A stretch of DNA of 64,000 bases. Origin: Kiritimatiellia bacterium (GTDB lineage Bacteria > Verrucomicrobiota > Kiritimatiellia > JAAZAB01). Shown here one piece after another: positions 3,790 to 34,350 of the stretch; position 1 is the first letter of the stretch, and each line of letters begins with the position of its first letter. The translations under genes and the position numbers were made by a program. The notes below the pieces were generated by a model. That model saw only the letters and a program-made list of their open reading frames with translations. It was not told where the DNA came from and did no database searches. The stretch covers positions 128,001-192,000 of the forward strand of contig JAXGPF010000010.1 in assembly GCA_040767085.1 (NCBI GenBank). Reading direction: 5' to 3'.

Positions 3790-3906
3790 TCCGCCAATCC
3801 GGCAAGCCCGAAATATATGCTTGAGTTTGCAGCAGTTTGGAATTAGTATTATAACATTTCAAGTCAAGTGAATGGTCGGGTGTTTGCAATTGACGGCTCT
3901 ACCAAT

Positions 3907-4977
3907 ATGAACAACCGGAAACGAATTCCCGCGCACCTGCAGATCCGCACAACCCTGAAGGAGGAAATCCTCGACGGCAAGCATGTGGAGCTTTCGGAAA
4001 GCCTGGTGATCCACCGGTTCAGGGTGTCCAGCGCGACGGCCCGGCGGGTGTTGAATGACTTGGCCCTGGAAGGTTTGTTGTCGCGCCAGGTCGGCCGGGG
4101 CAGCATTGTGCGGCAGCCGCAGGACCGGGACTTCCGGGAGTATGGCGTGGTTTTTTTTGACGTTTTCGATCCGCACGATTTGTTCATTGCCGAGATTGTC
4201 CAGGGGATTGAAGAACGGGCCCGCCCGAAAAAGCACCATTTACACCTGTTCACCACGCGCGGCCGCCAGTTGGATGGCAACGGAATGTCTTCCTTGCCCT
4301 ACCTCGTGACGAGCCGCAAGATCAACGGCATTTTTGTCTTGTCGCCCCTGGACGCCGATGCCATCCGGTTTTTCCTGGATGAACGCCTGCCTTGCGTTTG
4401 CGTCGGCAATCATTATCCCGGTTTGCGGGCGCCGTCGGTGCTGTTTGACAGCCGCCAGGCGATGCTGGATGTATGCCGCCGTCTGTCGCAGGATGGGGCG
4501 CGGCGCATTGCGGCCATCGTGCGGTGTAATCCGCAGCCGGATGTCGAGCGCACCTGCGATTTTATCGCGCGCGCATATTATGAATACTATGCCGAGTGCA
4601 AAATACGCCCGGAAGTGGCCTGGTGGCAGGCGTTGGCGGATGAGCCCGGCGCGGCTTTGAGCGCGATGCGCGCCCTGTCCAATTTGCCGGCGGCGCAGCG
4701 TCCGCAAGCCCTGGTGGTGCATGGGCTGAATTTATCGGCCGGGGTGGCCGAGTTCCTGGCGCACAGCCGCGATTGGCAGCCCGTTCAGGTGCATTTTACC
4801 GACCGGCGGGAACATTATCCCAATCTGATCACCGCGCCCTATCGCGAAGAAGGCAGGGCGGCTTTCGATTTGATGGAGGATATGTTGGTCCGTCCCCGCC
4901 AGCGGACGGCGGCCGCGCCGGTGTTATTGCCGATGGACATTCACTGGCAAGTGGCCGCCGGCGCCGCCGTGGGATGA
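3907..4977 (+). CDS. GntR-HTH / LacI-type sugar-binding-domain transcriptional regulator
   Basis: N-terminal wHTH (SESLVIHRFRVSSATARRVLNDLALEGLLSRQVGRGS) followed by a periplasmic-binding-like domain; start taken at MNNRKR. Confidence 0.85.
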   Translation: MNNRKRIPAHLQIRTTLKEEILDGKHVELSESLVIHRFRVSSATARRVLNDLALEGLLSRQVGRGSIVRQPQDRDFREYGVVFFDVFDPHDLFIAEIVQGIEERARPKKHHLHLFTTRGRQLDGNGMSSLPYLVTSRKINGIFVLSPLDADAIRFFLDERLPCVCVGNHYPGLRAPSVLFDSRQAMLDVCRRLSQDGARRIAAIVRCNPQPDVERTCDFIARAYYEYYAECKIRPEVAWWQALADEPGAALSAMRALSNLPAAQRPQALVVHGLNLSAGVAEFLAHSRDWQPVQVHFTDRREHYPNLITAPYREEGRAAFDLMEDMLVRPRQRTAAAPVLLPMDIHWQVAAGAAVG

Positions 4978-6015
4978 GTCCGCCGGCGCCGCGGCCAGAC
5001 GCCGATCGGCCGGCGGTTGGCCATCCTGGCGGTTGCATTCGGCGCAGGGATTAACTTCAATGCTGACGTGGCGCAGGTCCGGAAAGGTCAGCAGCCGGGC
5101 GCGGTAGTCGGCGGGAGCGCGCGCCTGGCCGGAAACCAGGCTGATAATGGCCGCCTGTTCCGCGGCGCCGACGCGCCAGACATGCAGGTCGGTGACGATG
5201 CTGTCGCCGTCGCTTTCGATGGCGCGGCGGATGCACTCCGTCTCAGCGGGATCCAGGTCGCTGTCGGTGAGAATCCGGCCCGTATCCAGGGCCAGGCTCC
5301 AGGCCCAGCGCAGGATGATGGCGCCGCCCACCAGGCCCATCAGCGGGTCGGCCCGAAGCCAACCCCATTGCCGCGCCGTCAGCAAAGCGGCGATGGCCAG
5401 CACGGAGGTCAGGGCGTCGGCCAGGACGTGGAAATATGCTGCGCGCAGGTTGTGATCGCGGGGCGGGTGGAGGTCGTGATTGTGCGGATGGCCGCCCGGA
5501 CCGTCCGGCCGGCCCAGCAGCCAGGCGCTGGCTATATTCACGGCCAGCCCGATTAGGGCGACCGCCAGCGCTTCGTTGAACCGGATTGGCGTGGGGGAAA
5601 GCAGGCGCAGCGTCGACTCCCAGAACATCAGCAAGGCGGCGCCGCCAAGGATGATGGAACTGCCGAAAGCGGTCAGGATGCCGACTTTGCCGGTGCCGAA
5701 GGTGAACCGCGGATTGCGGGCTTGGCGGCGGGCAAAGGCAAACGACGCCCAGGCAATGCCCAATGCCGCTGCATGCGTGCCCATGTGCCAGCCGTCGGCC
5801 AGCAGCGCCATCGAGCCGGTGGCCCAGCCCGCGGCGATTTCCACGGCCATCGCGGCAATTGTCAGGCCGGTAACCCAGGCCGTGCGGCGCTCGCCCTCGC
5901 GCTGAACAGCGCTGAAGGCATGCGAATGAATCAGTTCGGCCACCGCGTGGGAGTGGCGCCGGCGTTGGCCGCGGGGCGTGTCGGACTGGGCCGTCTTGGT
6001 TGGCGGGAGTTCCAT
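4924..6015 (-). CDS. dmeF: CDF family Co(II)/Ni(II) efflux transporter, DmeF-like
   Basis: SMALLADGWHMGTHA, RFTFGTGKV, His-rich loop, DHNLRAAYFHVLADALTS, DLHVWRVG. Confidence 0.9.
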   Translation of the reverse strand: MELPPTKTAQSDTPRGQRRRHSHAVAELIHSHAFSAVQREGERRTAWVTGLTIAAMAVEIAAGWATGSMALLADGWHMGTHAAALGIAWASFAFARRQARNPRFTFGTGKVGILTAFGSSIILGGAALLMFWESTLRLLSPTPIRFNEALAVALIGLAVNIASAWLLGRPDGPGGHPHNHDLHPPRDHNLRAAYFHVLADALTSVLAIAALLTARQWGWLRADPLMGLVGGAIILRWAWSLALDTGRILTDSDLDPAETECIRRAIESDGDSIVTDLHVWRVGAAEQAAIISLVSGQARAPADYRARLLTFPDLRHVSIEVNPCAECNRQDGQPPADRRLAAAPADSSHGGAGGHLPVNVHRQ

Positions 6016-7275: not shown

Positions 7276-10200
7276 ATGAAATTGCTCCATTATGCCGTTT
7301 GCGGATTGGCGCTGCTGGCCCGGCCGGGATTTGCCGGTGCGGAAGAAGCCGCCGGATCGCTGCGCTTCGATTTCAACCCGGCGCATGTCGTCCGGCCGCA
7401 AAAGGACGCAGGTCCGCAACTGTTTACGCTGGCGATCGAAAAATGTCCGGCTGCTCCCAGAATTGACGGAGCGCCGGATGATCCCTGCTGGGCCGCTGCC
7501 GCGGAATTGACGGATTTCGGCATTCCCGAGCCGCCCACGCGCGCCCGGATTTGTTATGACGACCGGGCGCTTTACTGCTTTGTGCGCTGCGAAGCGCAAA
7601 AGGGCCGCGCGCCGCGGGGCGAGCCGCGCGCGCGGGACGCCGGAATGCGCCAGGATGACAACATCCATATCGTGGTCAGCCCCGGCGTCGGTGCGGACAA
7701 GGAACATTTCTTCCGGATCAATCCCGCCGGATCGATTTACGATGCGCGCATGGGCGACGAGTCGTGGAATCCGGAGTGGGCACAGGCGGTGCAACGCGAT
7801 TCATCCGGCTGGCAGGCGGAGGTCGCAATTCCATTTGCTGCGCTGGGCCTGGGCGCGCCGCCTCCGTCGCTTGGGTTTAATATCGGACGCAGCGGGCCGG
7901 ATTTGATGATGCGCGCCTGGTATATTACCTTGCATTCCTCCGCCGCCGGCAGCGCCTTGATCCTCAAGGGCGCGGGGCCGGACACCGCGGCGGACGCGGC
8001 AGGCGCCCAAGCGGTTCAAACGAGCGCTGATCTGACGGCGGAAGGCGCGGGATTAGCCGTGGTCTTGCCGCGGTCATTCGCGCGGCCGCAGGATCGCTGG
8101 ATTGATGCCGTTCTGCAGCTTGCGCCCGGCGGCGCGTTGAAGGATACCCGGTTGACGGCCAGCCTGTTCGCGTTGGGCGGCCGCGAGCCGCTGGCGACCG
8201 CGTCCATTGTGCCGGAGCATGACTGCGGCTTGTTTTCGGTCGATCTGCGCCGCCATAATCTCGCGGACGCCGAAGTCAAGCTGGAATATACGATCGGTGA
8301 ACGGCGGCTGGGGCTGGCCAAGATGTTTTTAACCGCGCAGGCCGCCGAAATTTTGCCGGCCGGCCGCAAAATTCCCGTTCAGCTTGACCTGCCCGCGGGC
8401 CTGGAACCTGTGGAGGGCTGGCCGGTGGTGTTGGGTGTGCCGTTTCCGCGCGGCGCCCTGTGGGATGCCGGCAAACTGCGCCTGGTGGACGACGCCGGGG
8501 CCGAAATCCCGTGTCAGAAAGAAATTGTCAGCCGGTGGGCGCGCGAAGGCTCGGTACAATGGGTGCGGTTCGACGCATTGGTGAATTCCGGCCAAGGTTG
8601 CTGGGTGGAAACATCCGCGTCCGGCAAGGTGCCGGCGCAGCCGGTATCCGTGCGGGAAGCTGCCGGGCAATGGATCATTGAGACCGGCGCGGCAAAATAC
8701 GTGCTGGCGCGAGGCGCATCGCCCGTTGCCGAAATATGGTCGGACGGGCGCAAGATCGCCGCCAGCGCCGGAACCCGCGGGTTATTCGTTATTGACCAAA
8801 ACGGGCAGGTCGCCAGCGCGGCGGCGGAAGGCGAAACCGTGGCGGTGGAGGCGGCCGGGCCGGCGGCGGCCTGCGTGCGTTTCGAGGGTTTTTACCGCAC
8901 AGTGGATGGCGTCAACCTGGCGCGTCACATTACCCGGGTGGAAGCGTTTGCCGGCCAGCCGTTCGCGCGCGTTACCCATACCCTGGTTTTGAGCGAAGAC
9001 ACGCGCAAGGTGTGGTTCCGCGAAGCGGGCTGGGAGTTTGCCGTCGCGCCCGGCGCCGATCCGCGGGCGGTGTTCAATATTGACCGGGAAGATTCCAGCC
9101 GCGTCGCGGAGCAGCGCCTTGCCGGCGCCGCTTCGGCCTACATGCTGCAAGGCGAGCATGAACGATATGGCGCCGGCACCAACCGGTTTGTCGTGGCCGC
9201 GGGCAATCAAATCCTGGCTGAAGGCGCGGAATGCGGCGACTGGGCGATGCTGGCCGGGGAAGCCGGCGGCTTGTTGGCGGCATGCAAGGAAGCCGCCCGG
9301 CAGCATCCGAAAGAGTTTGAAATGCATGCCGATCGCCTGGCGGTCAAATTGTTCAGCAGCCGCGCGGGCGAGGAATTGGAATTTGCGCCGGCGAAGCTGG
9401 CGCAAAAGTGGAATCTGCAAGGCGACATTGCGGCAGCCGTGAATGCGGTGGAAACGGATGCCGCCGGCTGGTCCAAGACACACGAACTGATGCTGGCCCC
9501 CTTGCCGCCAACCGGGGCGGTTGACCGGGCGGCGTTGCTGGCGCGGCTGCATTCTCAGCCGGTTTTCGCGCTGGTGGATCCGGAATGGATACATCAGAGC
9601 GGCGCCATGGGGCCGCTACACCCTCGGGATACCCGGCGATTCCCCGCGGCCGAAAAAGCGATCGAGTATGTTTTTGGGATTTGGAGCCGCTTCGGGCATG
9701 AACCCGGCCATTACGGTTTTGTGGATTACTTTGCCGGGCCCACTTACAATGGCAGCTCCGGTCCCTGCAGCGCCCAGCGTTATCGTTTTACATACGGACT
9801 GCGTTCAAGCATCTGGCTGGTTTACGCCCGATCGGGCGACCGCGCGGCGCGGATTTTTGCCGAGGGCTCCAACAAGGCCTACCTGGATAATTATCTCGCC
9901 CATTGGGACGTGCCCGGCAAAGTGCGCGGCATCTTCACCGCCAGCGGCGGCAAGCCGTTCGCCCAATTGCCTTTCTACTGGGGCAAGGGCAGCAGTTTCA
10001 ATATCAGCAGTTCCACCGATTTGAATCAATTCTTATGGCTGTATTACCTGACCGGTTACCGCCGGGCCAAGGATGCCGTGGCGGAATTCGGCGAGGGCCT
10101 GAAACGCGGCTGGCAGCCCGGGAGGCGGGATTGGCGGCCGTTGATGGTCTTCCGGACGCTGACCCAATGTTACGGATTTACGTGGGATCCGCGGTTGCGC

Positions 10201-13079: not shown

Positions 13080-13225
13080 GGATTTGCATTATAAGAATCC
13101 ATGGCCTTTATACAAGGATAAAACAATCCTTGAAAAGTTGTGTTCGTAACAAGTCAAGTGTCCGCTTTTTGTAACAAGTGATCTGTCCGATTTGTTATTG
13201 TGTGTTGTTGCTCCTGGGGTGAGGA

Positions 13226-13254: not shown

Positions 13255-14439
13255 TTATGCGACGTCCTCCAGCGACGCCGAAATGTTCAACGGTCCTTGG
13301 TAGCGGCCAACCACATGCGGGCCATAACGGATGGACACCGTGCCATCGAGGTGCTCGCAGACTTTAACCCGGCACTTGGCGAAGCTGAAACGCCATTTTG
13401 ATGGTCCAATCTGCAAGCGGCGACTCCCGACAGCCACGGTATTGTCATTTTGAACCTCTCGCGCATGCTGCACACAGAAAATGCTGTCCAAATCCTGCTC
13501 ACCGCAAGGCACGAAACACGTTCCTGTTTCCCGCGCCTTCACCTTCATGTTGCGATTGAAGGAAGGCAGAAACTGTTGTTGAATATAGACGTTGGCCTCG
13601 GCCATCGTCCGGATTCCCGCCTGCCTTAATTCCTGCGGCAGGCGCCCTTGCCAGGTCTTAAACATCCGCTCTATTCGCCCACGTCCCTGGGGGCTATAGC
13701 TCGGAATATGTTCGATCCCCAACTGTTGCAACGCCCGTCCAATTTGCGTCAATTGACGCCGGTCCACCGCCCCGCCTTCTTTGGGCGTATAAAAGAAATG
13801 ACTGCCACGATCCGTGTACAGACTGCAGAAAACCCCATGTTTAATAATGACTTCTTTCAACCCCTTCATCACCGTTAATGTCCCTTCCTGGGGCACAAGA
13901 TAGGCCGTGTAGACTTCGCTGGTGGCATCGTCCATCACCAGGATCAGATCCTGCTTCTGGCCCGCCAGCAGGGGCAACCAGGCATGGGTGCTGCCATCCA
14001 CCATCAACATCATCCCCGCCATTGGTCGCCGTTCCCGCTGCTGCCGATGCGGCCCTCGTTTCCGGGCCTTCGCCACCAACCCGGCCGTCTGCAAGGCGCT
14101 CTTGACCCACTGATAACTGAGCTCGATCCCATGCTCCGCCTGCAGCTTCTCGTGAAAATGCCTCACATTGAAATCCATGTATTCTTCTCGGTACAACCTC
14201 AGCACCTGCTTCACCGTCGCAAGGGGCACGCGCCGCGGCCCCGGTATCTTCCGCCGACGATCCAGCAGCCCGTCGTAACCATACCGCTCGTAGCGCCCTT
14301 TCCAGCGCCGCATGGTCCGGTAGCTCACACCTAGTATCTCCGCCGCCTCCCACCACATTAACCGCCCTTCAATCGCACGCAAGATCACTTCCTGTACCTT
14401 CATTGCCCGCTCCAGTGCTGCCTTCGGATATTCATCCAT
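13255..14439 (-). CDS. ISNCY-family (rve-type DDE) transposase
   Basis: HTH (AAEILGVSYRTMRRW), DDE core MVDGSTHAW / YTDRGSHF / GRIERMFKTWQGRL; GGGGG SD before MDEYPK. Confidence 0.92.
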   Translation of the reverse strand: MDEYPKAALERAMKVQEVILRAIEGRLMWWEAAEILGVSYRTMRRWKGRYERYGYDGLLDRRRKIPGPRRVPLATVKQVLRLYREEYMDFNVRHFHEKLQAEHGIELSYQWVKSALQTAGLVAKARKRGPHRQQRERRPMAGMMLMVDGSTHAWLPLLAGQKQDLILVMDDATSEVYTAYLVPQEGTLTVMKGLKEVIIKHGVFCSLYTDRGSHFFYTPKEGGAVDRRQLTQIGRALQQLGIEHIPSYSPQGRGRIERMFKTWQGRLPQELRQAGIRTMAEANVYIQQQFLPSFNRNMKVKARETGTCFVPCGEQDLDSIFCVQHAREVQNDNTVAVGSRRLQIGPSKWRFSFAKCRVKVCEHLDGTVSIRYGPHVVGRYQGPLNISASLEDVA

Positions 14440-14530
14440 ATAACCCCCCTTTGAATGCACCATCCTGACAGCTTTAAGCGGACAAATCATTTGTTAATTA
14501 TGCGGCCAAGTCATTTGTTTACGACAGTTG

Positions 14531-30399: not shown

Positions 30400-30480
30400 A
30401 ATAATGCCTGGCGCTTAGCCCTCGCCAATAGGTAAGCCTGGCGTCATGAATGTGCACTGGGCGCGATGGATGGATCAATT

Positions 30481-31629
30481 ATGAGTAAACCGGATACAAT
30501 CAGACTGGGGCTGGTGGGTTTTGGAGACCCCTATAACGGCCATAACAGCGGACGCGGTGGTAATGTTTTCCAACAAGCGATCAGCGGGTTTGACGGCGTT
30601 ATTCCAACCGCGGTATGCGATATATCAAAGACCGCTCTGGCTGCCGCAAAAGAAGTGTTCCCAAAGATCAAAACCTTTGCCGACTTTGATCAAATGCTGG
30701 CCAGCGTGCATCTGGATGCGCTGATCATCGGCACCCCGGCCAATCTGCACACGGAATTCGCGGTCAAGGCGCTCAAGAAAAACATTCACGTGCTTTCGGA
30801 AATCCCATCGGTTACCAGCGCAGGCGAAGCGGCAACCTTGTGGGAGGCGCATAAAACAAGCCGTGCATTTTACATGACCGGTTCTAATCCGGCATATAAA
30901 GGCTGGGTGCAAGCGGCGGTTGAACTCAAACGCAAGGGACTGTTCGGAGATCTGATTTACGCGGAAGCCTCTTATATCCACGACTTGCGCAGCTATTTTA
31001 AACGCACACCCTGGCGGGCAACTTACGCGCCAATCCTTTACTGCACGCATTCGCTGACACCCATTTTGCGCTTGATTGATGAGGATTTCGATTGCGTTGC
31101 CTGTTTCGATACCGGCAGCCATATCAACAAGAAGGATGGGCAGCATGACGTGATGACGGCGCTGTTACGCACTCCCTCCAACGTGGTAGCGCATCTGACG
31201 GTGTCATGGATCAATAACTATCGCGGCGGATCGCACTTTTCGCGGTATTTCACTACCAAAGGTTGTTTCGAACAAACGCCGAACTACCAGACCCTGCGGA
31301 AAGAGCCCGCCGCCGCTGGCGAGCGCACACTGTTTTATTCCAGCGAGCTGCCGCTATACAATAATTGGATTGAATTGCCGGTTGGAAGAATGCCGCCGGC
31401 TTACGCCGGGAACCCCAAGGCTCATGCGCCGGGCGCGCATGGCGGCATTGATTATGCCATGTTGGACGCTTTTATCGGCGCAGTGCGGTCAAACGGCCCG
31501 TCGCCGATCAGCTTGCGCGATGGATTGCGCATGTCGCTTCCCGGAATATATGCCGCGGAATCGGCGCGTCAGGGCGGAGAATTGGTGCGGATTAAATACC
31601 CGTGGGAGGCGCGGCATCGCGGGGCGTAG
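30481..31629 (+). CDS. Gfo/Idh/MocA family NAD-dependent oxidoreductase (GH109-like)
   Basis: IRLGLVGFG Rossmann strand, IGTPANLH, HVLSEIP, EASYIHD, YCTHS, AHGGIDY. Confidence 0.88.
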   Translation: MSKPDTIRLGLVGFGDPYNGHNSGRGGNVFQQAISGFDGVIPTAVCDISKTALAAAKEVFPKIKTFADFDQMLASVHLDALIIGTPANLHTEFAVKALKKNIHVLSEIPSVTSAGEAATLWEAHKTSRAFYMTGSNPAYKGWVQAAVELKRKGLFGDLIYAEASYIHDLRSYFKRTPWRATYAPILYCTHSLTPILRLIDEDFDCVACFDTGSHINKKDGQHDVMTALLRTPSNVVAHLTVSWINNYRGGSHFSRYFTTKGCFEQTPNYQTLRKEPAAAGERTLFYSSELPLYNNWIELPVGRMPPAYAGNPKAHAPGAHGGIDYAMLDAFIGAVRSNGPSPISLRDGLRMSLPGIYAAESARQGGELVRIKYPWEARHRGA

Positions 31630-31820
31630 CGCCGCCTTTGTCATGAGCGGCGCAATGCGTCGCGATCCGGGTTGACGCGTCCCGGCATTCTGGCGCGCAA
31701 GCAGCGCGTCTCTCTTTTCCCCAAACACCTGAAGGCGGCCTTGCCGGAAATTCACTGGCGTTCGCGGTAAGCACCACCTTCGGTCTTTATGGCGGAAAAT
31801 CCGTAGAAATCATTTGTGGA

Positions 31821-31849
31821 TTGTGAAGGAATGCCGCGTATGGTAAGTT
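31821..31849 (+). promoter_or_regulatory. Candidate extended -10 promoter upstream of the repeat/GxxExxY cassette
   Basis: TTGTGA-17bp-TAAGTT with TG-N immediately before the -10. Confidence 0.4.
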
Positions 31850-31910
31850 ATCGACTAACTGGTGATCCGGCAGGCCTGCCGGAATTTGAAACGACCGGCA
31901 ATCGCCAGGA

Positions 31911-32152
31911 CGGAAGAAGGGGAGATTTCACCACGAAGGACACGAAGAGCACGAAGGATGATGTCGGAAGAAGGGGAGATTTCACCACGAAGGACACGAA
32001 GAGCACGAAGGATGATGTCGGAAGAAGGGGAGATTTCACCACGAAAGACACGAAGGATGCCGGAAGCAGAGAAGCGTACACCACGAAGGACACGAAGATC
32101 ACGAAGGATGACAAGGGGAAAAGGGGAGATTTCACCACGAAGGACACGAGGA
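31911..32152 (+). repeat. Left tandem array (5 copies) of the CACCACGAAGGACACGAAGAGCACGAAGG motif
   Basis: Two identical 54-bp units (31911-31964, 31965-32018) plus three degenerate copies, the last ending at the ATG at 32153. Confidence 0.95.
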
Positions 32153-32524
32153 ATGAAATTCGATGAATTGTCGAATCGGGTGATTGGTTGCGCAATTGAG
32201 GTGCATCGGGTGCTTGGACCGGGGCTGCTCGAATCCACATATGAGCAATGCCTGGCGCATGAGCTGAAACTGAACGGCATTGCCTTCCATCTTCAGCACC
32301 CGCTGCCGGTCGAATACAAGGGCGTCCGTTTGGACTGCGGCTACCGTGTTGATGTTCTGGTGGAGAACGCGCTGATCCTGGAGTTGAAGAGTGTCGAGGA
32401 AATTAAGGGTATATATGAGGCGCAATTACTGACATACATGAAGCTGGCCGGAGTAAAGACTGGTTTGCTGATCAACTTCAACATCACAATGCTCAAGGCT
32501 GGCATCAAGCGTTTTGTTCTTTAA
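32153..32524 (+). CDS. GxxExxY protein (PD-(D/E)XK nuclease-like fold), 123 aa
   Basis: IGCAIEVHRVLGPGLLESTYEQCL, YRVDVLVE..ILELKSVE, EAQLLTYMKL..GLLINFN. Confidence 0.95.
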   Translation: MKFDELSNRVIGCAIEVHRVLGPGLLESTYEQCLAHELKLNGIAFHLQHPLPVEYKGVRLDCGYRVDVLVENALILELKSVEEIKGIYEAQLLTYMKLAGVKTGLLINFNITMLKAGIKRFVL

Positions 32525-32525
32525 C

Positions 32526-32676
32526 CCTTCGTGCTCTTCGTGTCCTTCGTGGTGAAATAAAAACAAATAAAACTTCGTGCTCTTCGTGTCCTTCGTGGTG
32601 GATAAAAACAAATAAAACTTCGTGCTCTTCGTGTCCTTCGTGGTGAATAAAAATACTATGTGCTCTTCGTGGTGAA
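32526..32676 (-). repeat. Right tandem array (3 full copies plus 1 partial) of the same motif, inverted
   Basis: CTTCGTGCTCTTCGTGTCCTTCGTGGTG at 32527, 32573 and 32618, partial at 32660; A-rich linkers; 32526-32558 is the exact reverse complement of 31925-31957. Confidence 0.95.
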
Positions 32677-32691
32677 TAAACAGGAGTTAAC

Positions 32692-34350
32692 ATGCTGTTC
32701 AAACTGAATGCGGCCAAGCGGAAATGGGTGGATAATGCCTTCTCGAAAATGAGCGTGGCGGAAAAACTCGGGCAGATGGTCTGTGAGCGCGCCAAGACGC
32801 TGTTTGACGGCGGCGCTTCGCCGGATTATATGGCAAAATATCCCATCGGCAGCGCCTTTGTCGGCGCGGAAATCATTGACCAGACCAGCGACAGCATTAC
32901 GGATGTCAGGGAGAAGTGCGCAAAACTGCGCGCCATAACGCGCCCGGAACAGGCGCTGCTGCTTTGCGGCGATTTTGAACATGGCGCGGGCTGTGTGATC
33001 AGCAGTCTGACCCGTTTCCCGAATCCCATGGCACTGGGCGCAGCCAACGACCCGGCCTTGGCATATGCCGAGGGCGAAGCGATTGCCGTGGAGGCCTGCG
33101 GGCTGGGCGTACGCTGGGCCTTCGCGCCGGTGGCGGATTTGAACTTGAACATCAACAACCAACCGACCAACCACCGCGCTTTCGGCGACGATCCGGAGCA
33201 TGCCCTGCCGCTCTTAAAGGCCTATATCCGCGGCATGCAGGACCATGATTTCGCCGCCTGCGCCAAGCATTTTCCCGGCGATGGCACAGATGACCGCAAC
33301 CAGCATAACGTGACCTCGCTCAATACGCTGGCCATGCCGGACTGGCACAGGCTGCATGGGCGCGTCTTTAAGGAATTGATTGACGATGGGGTGCTTTCGA
33401 TCATGATCGGACATATCGGCTTGCCCGCTTACGAACCGGCGGATGCGCGCGGCATGTTCCGCCCCGCCACCGCCAGCCGCCGGCTGATGACGGATTTGCT
33501 CCGGGGCGAACTGGGATTCGAGGGGATCATTGTCACCGACGCCCTGAGCATGTGCGGGTTCTGCAGCTTTGCCGATTATGAGCAGCGCATGCTCGATTGT
33601 TTTAACGGCGGCGCGGATGTCTTCCTTTGGCCCGACCCCCCCCGGTTTTTCGAACTGATGCTGAAGGCGTTGGCGGATGGCCGGGCTGCGCTGGAACGCC
33701 TGGACGAATCGGCGCGCCGGGTACTGGAGTTCAAGGCGCACCTGGGCGTGGACGAAAACCGCATCCCGCCGCCGGTATCCGCGGACACCGTGGCGCGTTA
33801 CCGCGCCGCGGCCGACCGGATTGGCGAAAAATCCATCACCTTGCTGCGCAATCGCAACGATCTGGTCCCCTTAAAAGTCAAGCCGGGCGACAAGGTCTTG
33901 TTTTTAAAGTCCGAACACATGCCCGACCGGATGAAGACCGAGCGGTTTGCGGTGTTCTTCAAGGCCTTTACAACGCGCGGGGTGGAAATTACGGTGGATA
34001 AATTCGAGAAATTCGGCGATTACCGGGAGCGGTTGGACCAATATTCCCTGGTGGTGTTGATGGAGCATGTGACCACGATGAACGCCAATGGCTGCATCCG
34101 CGCGCTGGGGCCGATCTGGCCGTTCATGGCGCATCCGTTCGAGCGTAAAATCTGCGTCTCTTTCGGCACACCATACTTCCTGCATGATGTGGCGTCCGCC
34201 GATACATATATTAATGCTTATTGCAACAGCGACGCCACCCAAGCCGCCCTGGGCCGGGCGCTCTTCGGCGAAATCCCCTTCGTTGGGACCAGTCCGGTGG
34301 ATTGCGGGTTTGAATTCAAACGCGGGGATGGGCTGACAATCAAAGCTTAG
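32692..34350 (+). CDS. Glycoside hydrolase family 3 (beta-N-acetylhexosaminidase/beta-glucosidase type)
   Basis: EKLGQM, DFEHG, FAPVADL, CAKHFPGDG, IVTDALSM nucleophile motif, SITLLRN, SFGTPY; no signal peptide. Confidence 0.92.
   Translation: MLFKLNAAKRKWVDNAFSKMSVAEKLGQMVCERAKTLFDGGASPDYMAKYPIGSAFVGAEIIDQTSDSITDVREKCAKLRAITRPEQALLLCGDFEHGAGCVISSLTRFPNPMALGAANDPALAYAEGEAIAVEACGLGVRWAFAPVADLNLNINNQPTNHRAFGDDPEHALPLLKAYIRGMQDHDFAACAKHFPGDGTDDRNQHNVTSLNTLAMPDWHRLHGRVFKELIDDGVLSIMIGHIGLPAYEPADARGMFRPATASRRLMTDLLRGELGFEGIIVTDALSMCGFCSFADYEQRMLDCFNGGADVFLWPDPPRFFELMLKALADGRAALERLDESARRVLEFKAHLGVDENRIPPPVSADTVARYRAAADRIGEKSITLLRNRNDLVPLKVKPGDKVLFLKSEHMPDRMKTERFAVFFKAFTTRGVEITVDKFEKFGDYRERLDQYSLVVLMEHVTTMNANGCIRALGPIWPFMAHPFERKICVSFGTPYFLHDVASADTYINAYCNSDATQAALGRALFGEIPFVGTSPVDCGFEFKRGDGLTIKA

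Follow-up and report, generated by a model that had tools for sequence, protein, structure and literature searches.

The window analysed here, a 64,000-nucleotide (nt) stretch of a Kiritimatiellia bacterium genome (GenBank assembly GCA_040767085.1, contig JAXGPF010000010.1, positions 128,001 to 192,000), contains an open reading frame (ORF) for a GxxExxY protein of 123 amino acids (aa), enclosed by two mutually inverted arrays of short repeats that we call arms (Table 1). An arm consists of three copies of a 7-nt word (CACGAAG in the window) set at 9-nt spacing, with (T)TCAC ahead of them. A preliminary description of the locus, made from the sequence alone, had already pointed out the inverted arrays, a perfect 33-nt inverted pair (31925-31957 and 32526-32558) and two letter-identical 54-nt units (31911-31964 and 31965-32018), all of which are present in the sequence. 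Comparison with related loci indicates, with high confidence, that arm-gene-arm forms a discrete cassette which has passed between phyla and left gene-less and cargo-swapped derivatives.

The right array fits closely between the gene and its downstream neighbour: it begins 1 nt past the GxxExxY stop codon and ends 5 nt ahead of the AGGAG (32682-32686) that precedes the start codon of a glycoside hydrolase family 3 (GH3) gene. Tandem Repeats Finder assigned a period of 54 (2.7 copies, 98% matches) to the left array and of 45 (2.8 copies) to the right array, and also detected the 9-nt sub-period within the arms. The linkers between the repeats are identical rather than unique and differ by side as first described, being G/purine-rich on the left and A-rich on the right. 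When a 19-nt core of the arm was searched with up to 3 mismatches, all 8 matches in the window fell within the cassette, against an expectation of 0.00 from 100 shuffles. The gene has a GC content of 50%, compared with 60.8% for the window. The idea that the left linker is a relic of the 5' end of the gene was dropped as not significant (634 of 2000 shuffles scored as well). As a separate observation, all three + frames and the - frames are open across 31862-32524, because the 9-nt period contains no stop codons, so that ORF callers yield an extended ORF of 220 aa as well as several spurious ones made of repeats in the window; the same over-long artefact occurs in the database homologues P0009, P0020, P0092 and P0116, which read through upstream repeats of like kind.

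Table 1. Features of the GxxExxY cassette and its surroundings in the window
Feature	Positions	Strand	Remarks
GxxExxY gene, 123 aa, PD-(D/E)XK family	32153..32524	+	ATG 32153, TAA 32522-32524
Left arm array, five + arms	31911..32152	+	last arm ends at start codon
Left arms with three words	31925-31957, 31979-32011, 32079-32107	+	
Left arms with two words	32033-32055, 32129-32152	+	the latter abuts ATG
Right arm array	32526..32676	-	reverse complements of left arms; three full and one partial
Right arms, full	32526-32558, 32573-32600, 32618-32647	-	
Right arm, partial	32660-32676	-	
Gfo/Idh/MocA oxidoreductase gene, upstream neighbour	30466..31629	+	host gene, outside element
Terminator-like hairpin between Gfo/Idh/MocA gene and cassette	31692..31710	+	predicted, consensus match; context only
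GH3 glycoside hydrolase gene, downstream neighbour	32692..34350	+	host gene, outside element

The assignment of the protein to its family is secure at the sequence level, with matches to PF13366 PDDEXK_3 (E 3.9e-42, 143.8 bits against a cut-off of 22) and to the NCBIfam model TIGR04256 "GxxExxY protein" (148.7 bits, the cut-off being 35). PF13366 is the sole Pfam match of the protein, which carries no extra DNA-binding domain. The G-x-x-E-x-x-Y motif corresponds to G24-L-L-E27-S-T-Y30. The residues D67, E77 and K79 are invariant in 30 close homologues, and among 79 diverse homologues E77 is invariant and D67 and K79 are conserved in at least 90%. An AlphaFold model built from the 79 diverse rows reached a predicted local distance difference test (pLDDT) value of 95.5 and a predicted template modelling (pTM) score of 0.87, an earlier model from the 30 close homologues being unusable (pLDDT 40.5). 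Its nearest folds in Foldseek, all weak (template modelling scores 0.44-0.53), were lambda exonuclease, the Cas4 protein SSO0001 and archaeal Hjc resolvases, followed by other weak matches to XisH-family proteins and a homing endonuclease domain (I-Bth0305I, rank 50), all of them PD-(D/E)XK nucleases. A homodimer prediction gave no evidence either way (score 0.00, mark 0.42). Two homologues, P0121 and P0123, are two-domain GxxExxY fusions of ~280-290 aa whose second domain lacks the E-x-K and which look like pseudo-dimers; judged from their sequences, such fusions hint that the working unit may be dimeric.

This is a very large family: when clustered at 50% identity, 22,070 clusters match at E <= 0.001. 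A survey of the superfamily gives its function as "Unknown" (PMC3424549), and GxxExxY is mentioned in passing in a further paper (PMC8934634). Homologues of the window protein number in the thousands, the best 120 being 80-100% identical to it; the few of these entries that are named by source belong to widely different groups, Desantisbacteria, Lacimicrobium (a gammaproteobacterium) and Bipolaricaulota. A genome scan detected 592 relatives, from which 80 loci were retained; with the window these make 81 sources. The hosts of these loci include Planctomycetota, Desulfobacterota, Verrucomicrobiota, Lentisphaerota, Kiritimatiellia, Gammaproteobacteria, Bipolaricaulota, Bacillota, Acidobacteriota, Chloroflexota and a Mariprofundus.

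Inverted arms proved to be a regular companion of the gene. With a lenient word-based detector, both arms were found in 58 of 78 related loci, spanning at least eight phyla, and in none of 372 controls in which the same geometry was moved to other positions of the same loci; a 5' arm lay within 120 nt in 61 of 79 loci and a 3' arm in 72 of 80. A measure that takes no account of words gave a similar picture: a perfect inverted match at least 12 nt long was shared by the 60 nt upstream and the 70 nt downstream in 43 of 78 loci and in 0 of 373 controls, whose maximum was 9. This longest perfect match, together with word detection, replaced duplex energy as the measure of arm pairing, because the controls also folded strongly (mean -32.2 kcal/mol, compared with -46.6 kcal/mol observed). 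Usually 0-1 nt separates the end of the 5' arm from the ATG, and the reverse complement of this arm starts mostly 2-15 nt after the stop codon. Same-orientation multiples beside the gene, by our reading of the arm table, occur in only 6 of 81 sources, including the window. Thus, the expectation that homologues carry inverted flanking arrays held for the inverted repeats on both sides and failed for the tandem arrays: the conserved feature is a single three-word arm on each side. In three sources the words of the 5' arm are separated by a hairpin-like insert of ~26-30 nt (L009 ~4940-5000, L066 ~1250-1305, L021 ~4930-5000), two of these being from the same Bipolaricaulota metagenome-assembled genome (MAG).

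This layout bears directly on the suggestion that the tandem arrays form a functional RNA array or a locus resembling a CRISPR array, for example a type III toxin-antitoxin system of the ToxIN kind. Tandem direct repeats do stand directly upstream of a nuclease gene in the window, as such a system would have them. However, the upstream array is not conserved, the norm among homologues being one inverted arm per side; the linkers are identical where CRISPR has unique spacers; the downstream copies are inverted, unlike either system; no cas domain was found among the window ORFs scanned; and Rfam gave no match in 31000-33500 at E <= 1. We therefore regard this explanation as very improbable.

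Arms also accompany much more distant relatives. Among eight plasmid- or chromid-borne homologues with 33-57% identity, six have flanking inverted arms, whose words are CACAGAG-type in Bacteroides, CACAGAG in Bernardetia, CGCGAAG in Sphingomonas, ACAAATC in Prevotella and CGCAGAG in Gemmatirosa, where complete hairpins stand on both sides; the Treponema homologue has a different, non-word inverted repeat. No flanking arms were seen at the other two of the eight (a Fusobacteria bacterium and a Persicobacter). As a negative control, the 33-nt arm found no credible match in 7.3 Gb of plasmids, in which close protein homologues are also lacking. A phage collection contained no match to the protein.

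The extent of DNA similarity between phyla coincides with the arms. Cross-phylum identity of 78-90% takes in the gene together with 16-38 nt on its upstream side and 28-37 nt on its downstream side, ending at the outer arm edges; the window cassette, for instance, is 79-83% identical over 415-423 nt to L002, L003, L005 and L007. Arm-gene-arm is thus the unit common to different phyla, which favours the first interpretation of the locus. The gene has a lower GC content than its flanks in 69 of 70 loci, and it also tracks host GC (r 0.8), so that many copies have been resident long enough to drift toward host composition. Some loci seem orthologous across related MAGs (L049/L056/L059). Three copies in one gammaproteobacterial MAG (L015, L017 and L020, ~4915-5480 each) are 97-99% identical and lie in different places. 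The unit that these three share ends in its own inverted repeat of ~12 nt and may be a cassette nested in another small element.

Presence and absence in congeners can be compared for a distant family member, where a cassette splits the fabD-fabG junction of Sphingomonas parapaucimobilis (L084 1444-1880); in S. paeninsulae (L085), fabD and fabG are adjacent, with a spacer of ~30 nt and no cassette. The two species are too diverged (74% identity) for the exact junction or a target-site duplication to be read. The annotated ORF of L084 continues through the 3' arm.

Arms are also found away from the gene. The 81 sources contain 246 arm clusters, which include 53 pairs that enclose the gene, 74 unpaired arms and 33 gene-less convergent pairs, the latter with loops of 6-140 nt and confined to 15 sources. 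Several arm copies occur within 10 kb in L010, L038 and L043. In L038 (3840-6421) a gene-less unit of 225 bp, repeated 11.8 times, forms a satellite-like tandem array around the GxxExxY gene, which lies inside one unit with no arms directly adjoining; L010 has two gene-less tandem arrays (4257-4738 and 8881-9517), of 108 bp x 4.5 and 251 bp x 2.5. Among the ORFs near stray arms, of which 31 were listed and 17 compared with Pfam, none of the 17 matched the S23p or four-helix-bundle family.

In two of the 81 sources, arm pairs clearly enclose other cargo. In L067 (3882-5385) a HEPN-MNT pair (4051-4805) lies between + and - arms and is directly adjoined by a GxxExxY cassette (gene 5001-5363), the two neighbouring cassettes having the same arms and identical outer flanks; an extra - arm is seen there at 3882-3905. 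In L078 (3752-4929) the cargo between the + and - arms is a DUF6414 gene of 298 aa (Pfam E 1e-33), which lies on the opposite strand and has a weak PADLOC match to PDC-M37A; the neighbouring GxxExxY gene has a 3' arm only. Such loci could mean that the arms are recombination sites of an enzyme encoded elsewhere, by the host or a helper element, with GxxExxY merely the commonest cargo, for example an addiction or defence nuclease, in a loosely integron-like arrangement. The enclosure of a toxin-antitoxin pair and of the DUF6414 gene by the same arms, the reading of L067 as a two-cassette array, and the small size of a protein devoid of an extra DNA-binding domain all favour such an enzyme. On the other side, both cases of other cargo stand beside a GxxExxY gene, GxxExxY is accompanied throughout the family by arms whose words change along with the protein, PADLOC returned no match for the GxxExxY protein, and the 49 window ORFs scanned yielded no domain of an integrase, recombinase or transposase. 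Overall, we consider an enzyme encoded elsewhere to be quite unlikely.

The Pfam scan of these 49 ORFs thus bore out the earlier statement that the window holds no transposase, integrase or cas gene: neither an integrase, nor a transposase catalytic domain, nor a cas domain was found. The sole transposase-like item among them is a 410-aa protein with helix-turn-helix (HTH) domains only (HTH_28/HTH_32/HTH_23/HTH_29), encoded at 13255-14487 on the - strand, ~18 kb from the cassette. Short tandem repeats at 13146-13193 and 14474-14519 bracket this gene, which could be an insertion sequence.

The preliminary description had also predicted that the repeat sequence would vary together with the protein phylogeny, and so it does. 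Three dialects of the word exist among the 80 loci, CACGAAG, CATGAAG and CACAGAG, and at each locus the downstream arm is the complement of the same variant. In a tree of 78 proteins (L025, L046 and L066 were dropped for an internal stop codon in the match region, one of them being also truncated), the 12 loci with CATGAAG form one clade and the 4 loci with CACAGAG another, with Shimodaira-Hasegawa-like approximate likelihood ratio test (SH-aLRT) supports of 92 and 98. The dialect labels require 2 changes on the tree, the minimum, whereas shuffled labels require a mean of 15.2 and none of 200 shuffles was as low. The CATGAAG clade mixes hosts from Lentisphaerae, Verrucomicrobia, Kiritimatiellia, Desulfobacterota and Methylococcales and an Anaerolineales MAG, that is, at least five phyla, and thus the dialect follows the protein and not the host. 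In all 12 CATGAAG proteins residue 120 is S and residue 4 is S/T, in contrast to the R at residue 120 (56 of 58, with 2 gaps) and the D/E at residue 4 of proteins of the other dialects. Since these changes represent a single event on the tree, they provide a prediction about recognition, not proof of it.

Cassettes lie preferentially along the direction of host transcription. According to a crude ORF call, the two neighbours both run in the direction of the cassette in 37 of 63 loci and both run against it in 5; annotated examples of co-orientation, the cassette gene being X, are radA-X-FAD protein, ade-X-mannose-1-phosphate guanylyltransferase and fabD-X-fabG. On the + strand of the window, no sigma-70-like promoter was found. 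The cassette is therefore probably expressed by read-through from host transcription units. In an RNA fold prediction for 32075-32610, nested arm-arm stems enclose the ORF and its start codon (z -6.06, 0 of 100 shuffles as good).

These features call to mind the ORF-bearing intervening sequences (IVSs) of 23S rRNA. The Coxiella element measures 428 nt, contains an S23p ORF, has three tandem heptamers just upstream of the ATG, varies in heptamer number and is excised by RNase III, the excision being proven (PMC4990558). The parallel is striking: both are of ~430-440 nt, with one ORF of ~120 aa inside an inverted-repeat stem and variable tandem heptamers before the ATG, and in both the GC content is below that of the host and horizontal acquisition is inferred. 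They differ in that the cassette sits between protein-coding genes (Gfo/Idh/MocA and GH3), whereas IVSs sit in helix 25 or 45 of 23S rRNA; in that the cassette ORF encodes a PD-(D/E)XK nuclease instead of the four-helix-bundle S23p; and in the spacing of the words, 9 nt instead of 7.

The main rival to a DNA-level role follows from this likeness. The arms would pair in the read-through transcript into a stem of 25-33 bp that is cut by RNase III or hides the ribosome-binding region, thereby insulating the host operon and limiting synthesis of the nuclease, whose real substrate would lie elsewhere; spread would occur by ordinary recombination. Besides the Coxiella parallel, the way in which the arms hug the ORF, the co-orientation with neighbours, the failure to find a + strand promoter and the predicted stems speak for a role in RNA. 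A comparison of the arms themselves speaks against it. Mismatches between arms show no excess of G:U over A:C (37 G:U-type, 54 A:C-type and 83 other mismatches in 45 loci), and the duplex energy favours neither strand (better on + in 36, on - in 37, tied in 2 of 75 loci). In 21 loci with three intact words in both arms, the 2-nt inter-word spacers mismatch in 32 of 84 columns and remain purine-purine on the word strand; had the arms been selected for pairing alone, the spacers would co-vary, and they do not. The word sequence, moreover, is kept across phyla although third codon positions are 47% identical between loci with three-word arms, recognisable arms persisting in three quarters. (Two figures for word conservation, 4/441 and 1.000, were largely built in by the selection of arms via exact hexamers and are not used as evidence.) All six words change dialect together with the protein clade, the arms in L078 surround a gene on the opposite strand, and gene-less pairs and tandem arrays require a process at the DNA level. 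We judge this RNA explanation to be unlikely as a full account, though it keeps a sizeable share of the probability; a stem in RNA and a site in DNA need not exclude each other.

Our favoured explanation is that the package is a compact selfish cassette whose arms would serve the encoded nuclease as its cognate DNA sites, since this is the simplest joint account of the inversion, the constraint at the level of words and the switch of all six words with the clade. With its full mechanism, it has in our estimation about an even chance of being right. The basic cassette, of ~440 bp, spreads horizontally and comprises a 5' arm, the gene for the 123-aa PD-(D/E)XK nuclease and a 3' arm. At each end the words would be bound by the nuclease, which may cut at or near the outer arm edges, after which the unit could be excised, copied by repair or moved. 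On arm pairs that are gene-less or enclose other cargo, the nuclease would act in trans. Pairing of the arms in the transcript would give a long stem, with the start region concealed in it. In the window, both arms have been amplified locally and independently, giving five copies on the left side and three and a half on the right.

Several results weigh against this proposal. Foldseek gave no match at E <= 0.001, and a profile search of the PDB sequences none at E <= 1. With the 19-nt core, the arm motif was not found in the other 63 kb of the window, so that nothing points to dispersed copies in this genome. The near-identical copies L015, L017 and L020 share a unit of ~560 nt that reaches past the arms, to 81-89 nt and 100-112 nt from the gene, and thus the arms are not the ends of that copy unit; nor was a target-site duplication seen at their three junctions. 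The two adjacent copies of L047 were ruled out as independent insertions, being a 100% identical tandem duplication. The tracking of host GC and the apparent orthology of L049, L056 and L059 imply that much of the persistence is vertical. The co-variation of dialect and protein rests on only two evolutionary events and could reflect simple co-inheritance, and the close apposition of the arms to the start and stop codons would be expected from a role at the RNA level.

The likeness to the pairing of REP-associated tyrosine transposases (RAYTs) with repetitive extragenic palindromic (REP) sequences, suggested when the locus was first described, holds in part. In the RAYT/REPIN system, these transposases are associated with REP doublets, as set out in Bertels & Rainey 2011 (PMC3116915). 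Shared with it are one small gene between short, inverted cognate repeats, doublets without a gene that are capable of forming hairpins (here the 33 pairs in 15 of 81 sources), tandem clusters of repeats, and a repeat type that goes with the linked gene. What does not carry over is the enzyme and the build of the repeats: the cassette protein is of the PD-(D/E)XK type and no RAYT, RAYTs being HUH/Y1 (IS200-like) transposases, and its arms are three direct heptamer words, whereas REPs are individually palindromic. The cassette also differs in being shared by several phyla, with 78-90% identity in DNA; for RAYTs, largely vertical inheritance is generally described. As to repeats dispersed through the genome, the window has 0 arm copies outside the cassette, and a few loci (L010, L038 and L043) have several within 10 kb.

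With insertion sequences (IS) and miniature inverted-repeat transposable elements (MITEs), the cassette shares terminal inverted repeats, a single gene, gene-less derivatives, near-identical copies (L015/L017/L020) and foreign cargo. It differs from them in having no DDE, HUH, serine or tyrosine transposase. No target-site duplication was evident at the L015/L017/L020 junctions. We know of no IS family that uses a lone PD-(D/E)XK protein, TnsA of Tn7 being of this type and working together with TnsB, and to our knowledge the cassette is far smaller than any autonomous IS. Like free-standing PD-(D/E)XK homing endonucleases such as I-Bth0305I, it is a small, cargo-free gene between host genes, co-oriented and patchy in distribution; unlike theirs, its insertion contexts are mutually unrelated, so that it has no single homing site, and conserved inverted arms are not, as far as we know, a feature of homing endonuclease genes. 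Integron cassettes resemble it in being small, promoterless, co-oriented with the surrounding transcription and interchangeable as cargo between like boundaries (L067). Its boundaries, however, are mutually inverted around one gene, no attC-type site is evident (no test was made for one) and no integron integrase was found among the window ORFs scanned.

In kind, then, the cassette is a selfish gene with cognate repeats, comparable to RAYT/REPIN or IS/MITE and distinct from them in enzyme class and arm build, and the package looks like a kind of tiny mobile DNA element not yet described. A literature search that left subscription journals and supplements aside found no paper in which flanking repeats are connected with GxxExxY or PDDEXK_3 proteins. 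A wider proposal, which we advance tentatively and place well short of an even chance, is that GxxExxY proteins are the mobility enzymes of a previously unrecognised and very abundant class of minimal DNA elements: heptamer-word inverted-triplet cassettes that would be moved by a lone 123-aa PD-(D/E)XK nuclease, belonging to no known transposase class, that would also mobilise gene-less hairpin pairs and toxin-antitoxin-type cargo, with the ORF-bearing 23S rRNA intervening sequences as members of the same super-class.

If the arms are indeed cognate sites, a very common "hypothetical" gene would become interpretable as the engine of a minimal mobile element. This would explain recurrent insertions in operons, breaks in assemblies and spurious repeat-derived ORFs. 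The dialects, together with the clade-specific changes R120S and D4S, would offer a compact system for the reading of DNA by a tiny nuclease. The likeness to rRNA intervening sequences, for which the mode of spread is a puzzle, would likewise become testable.

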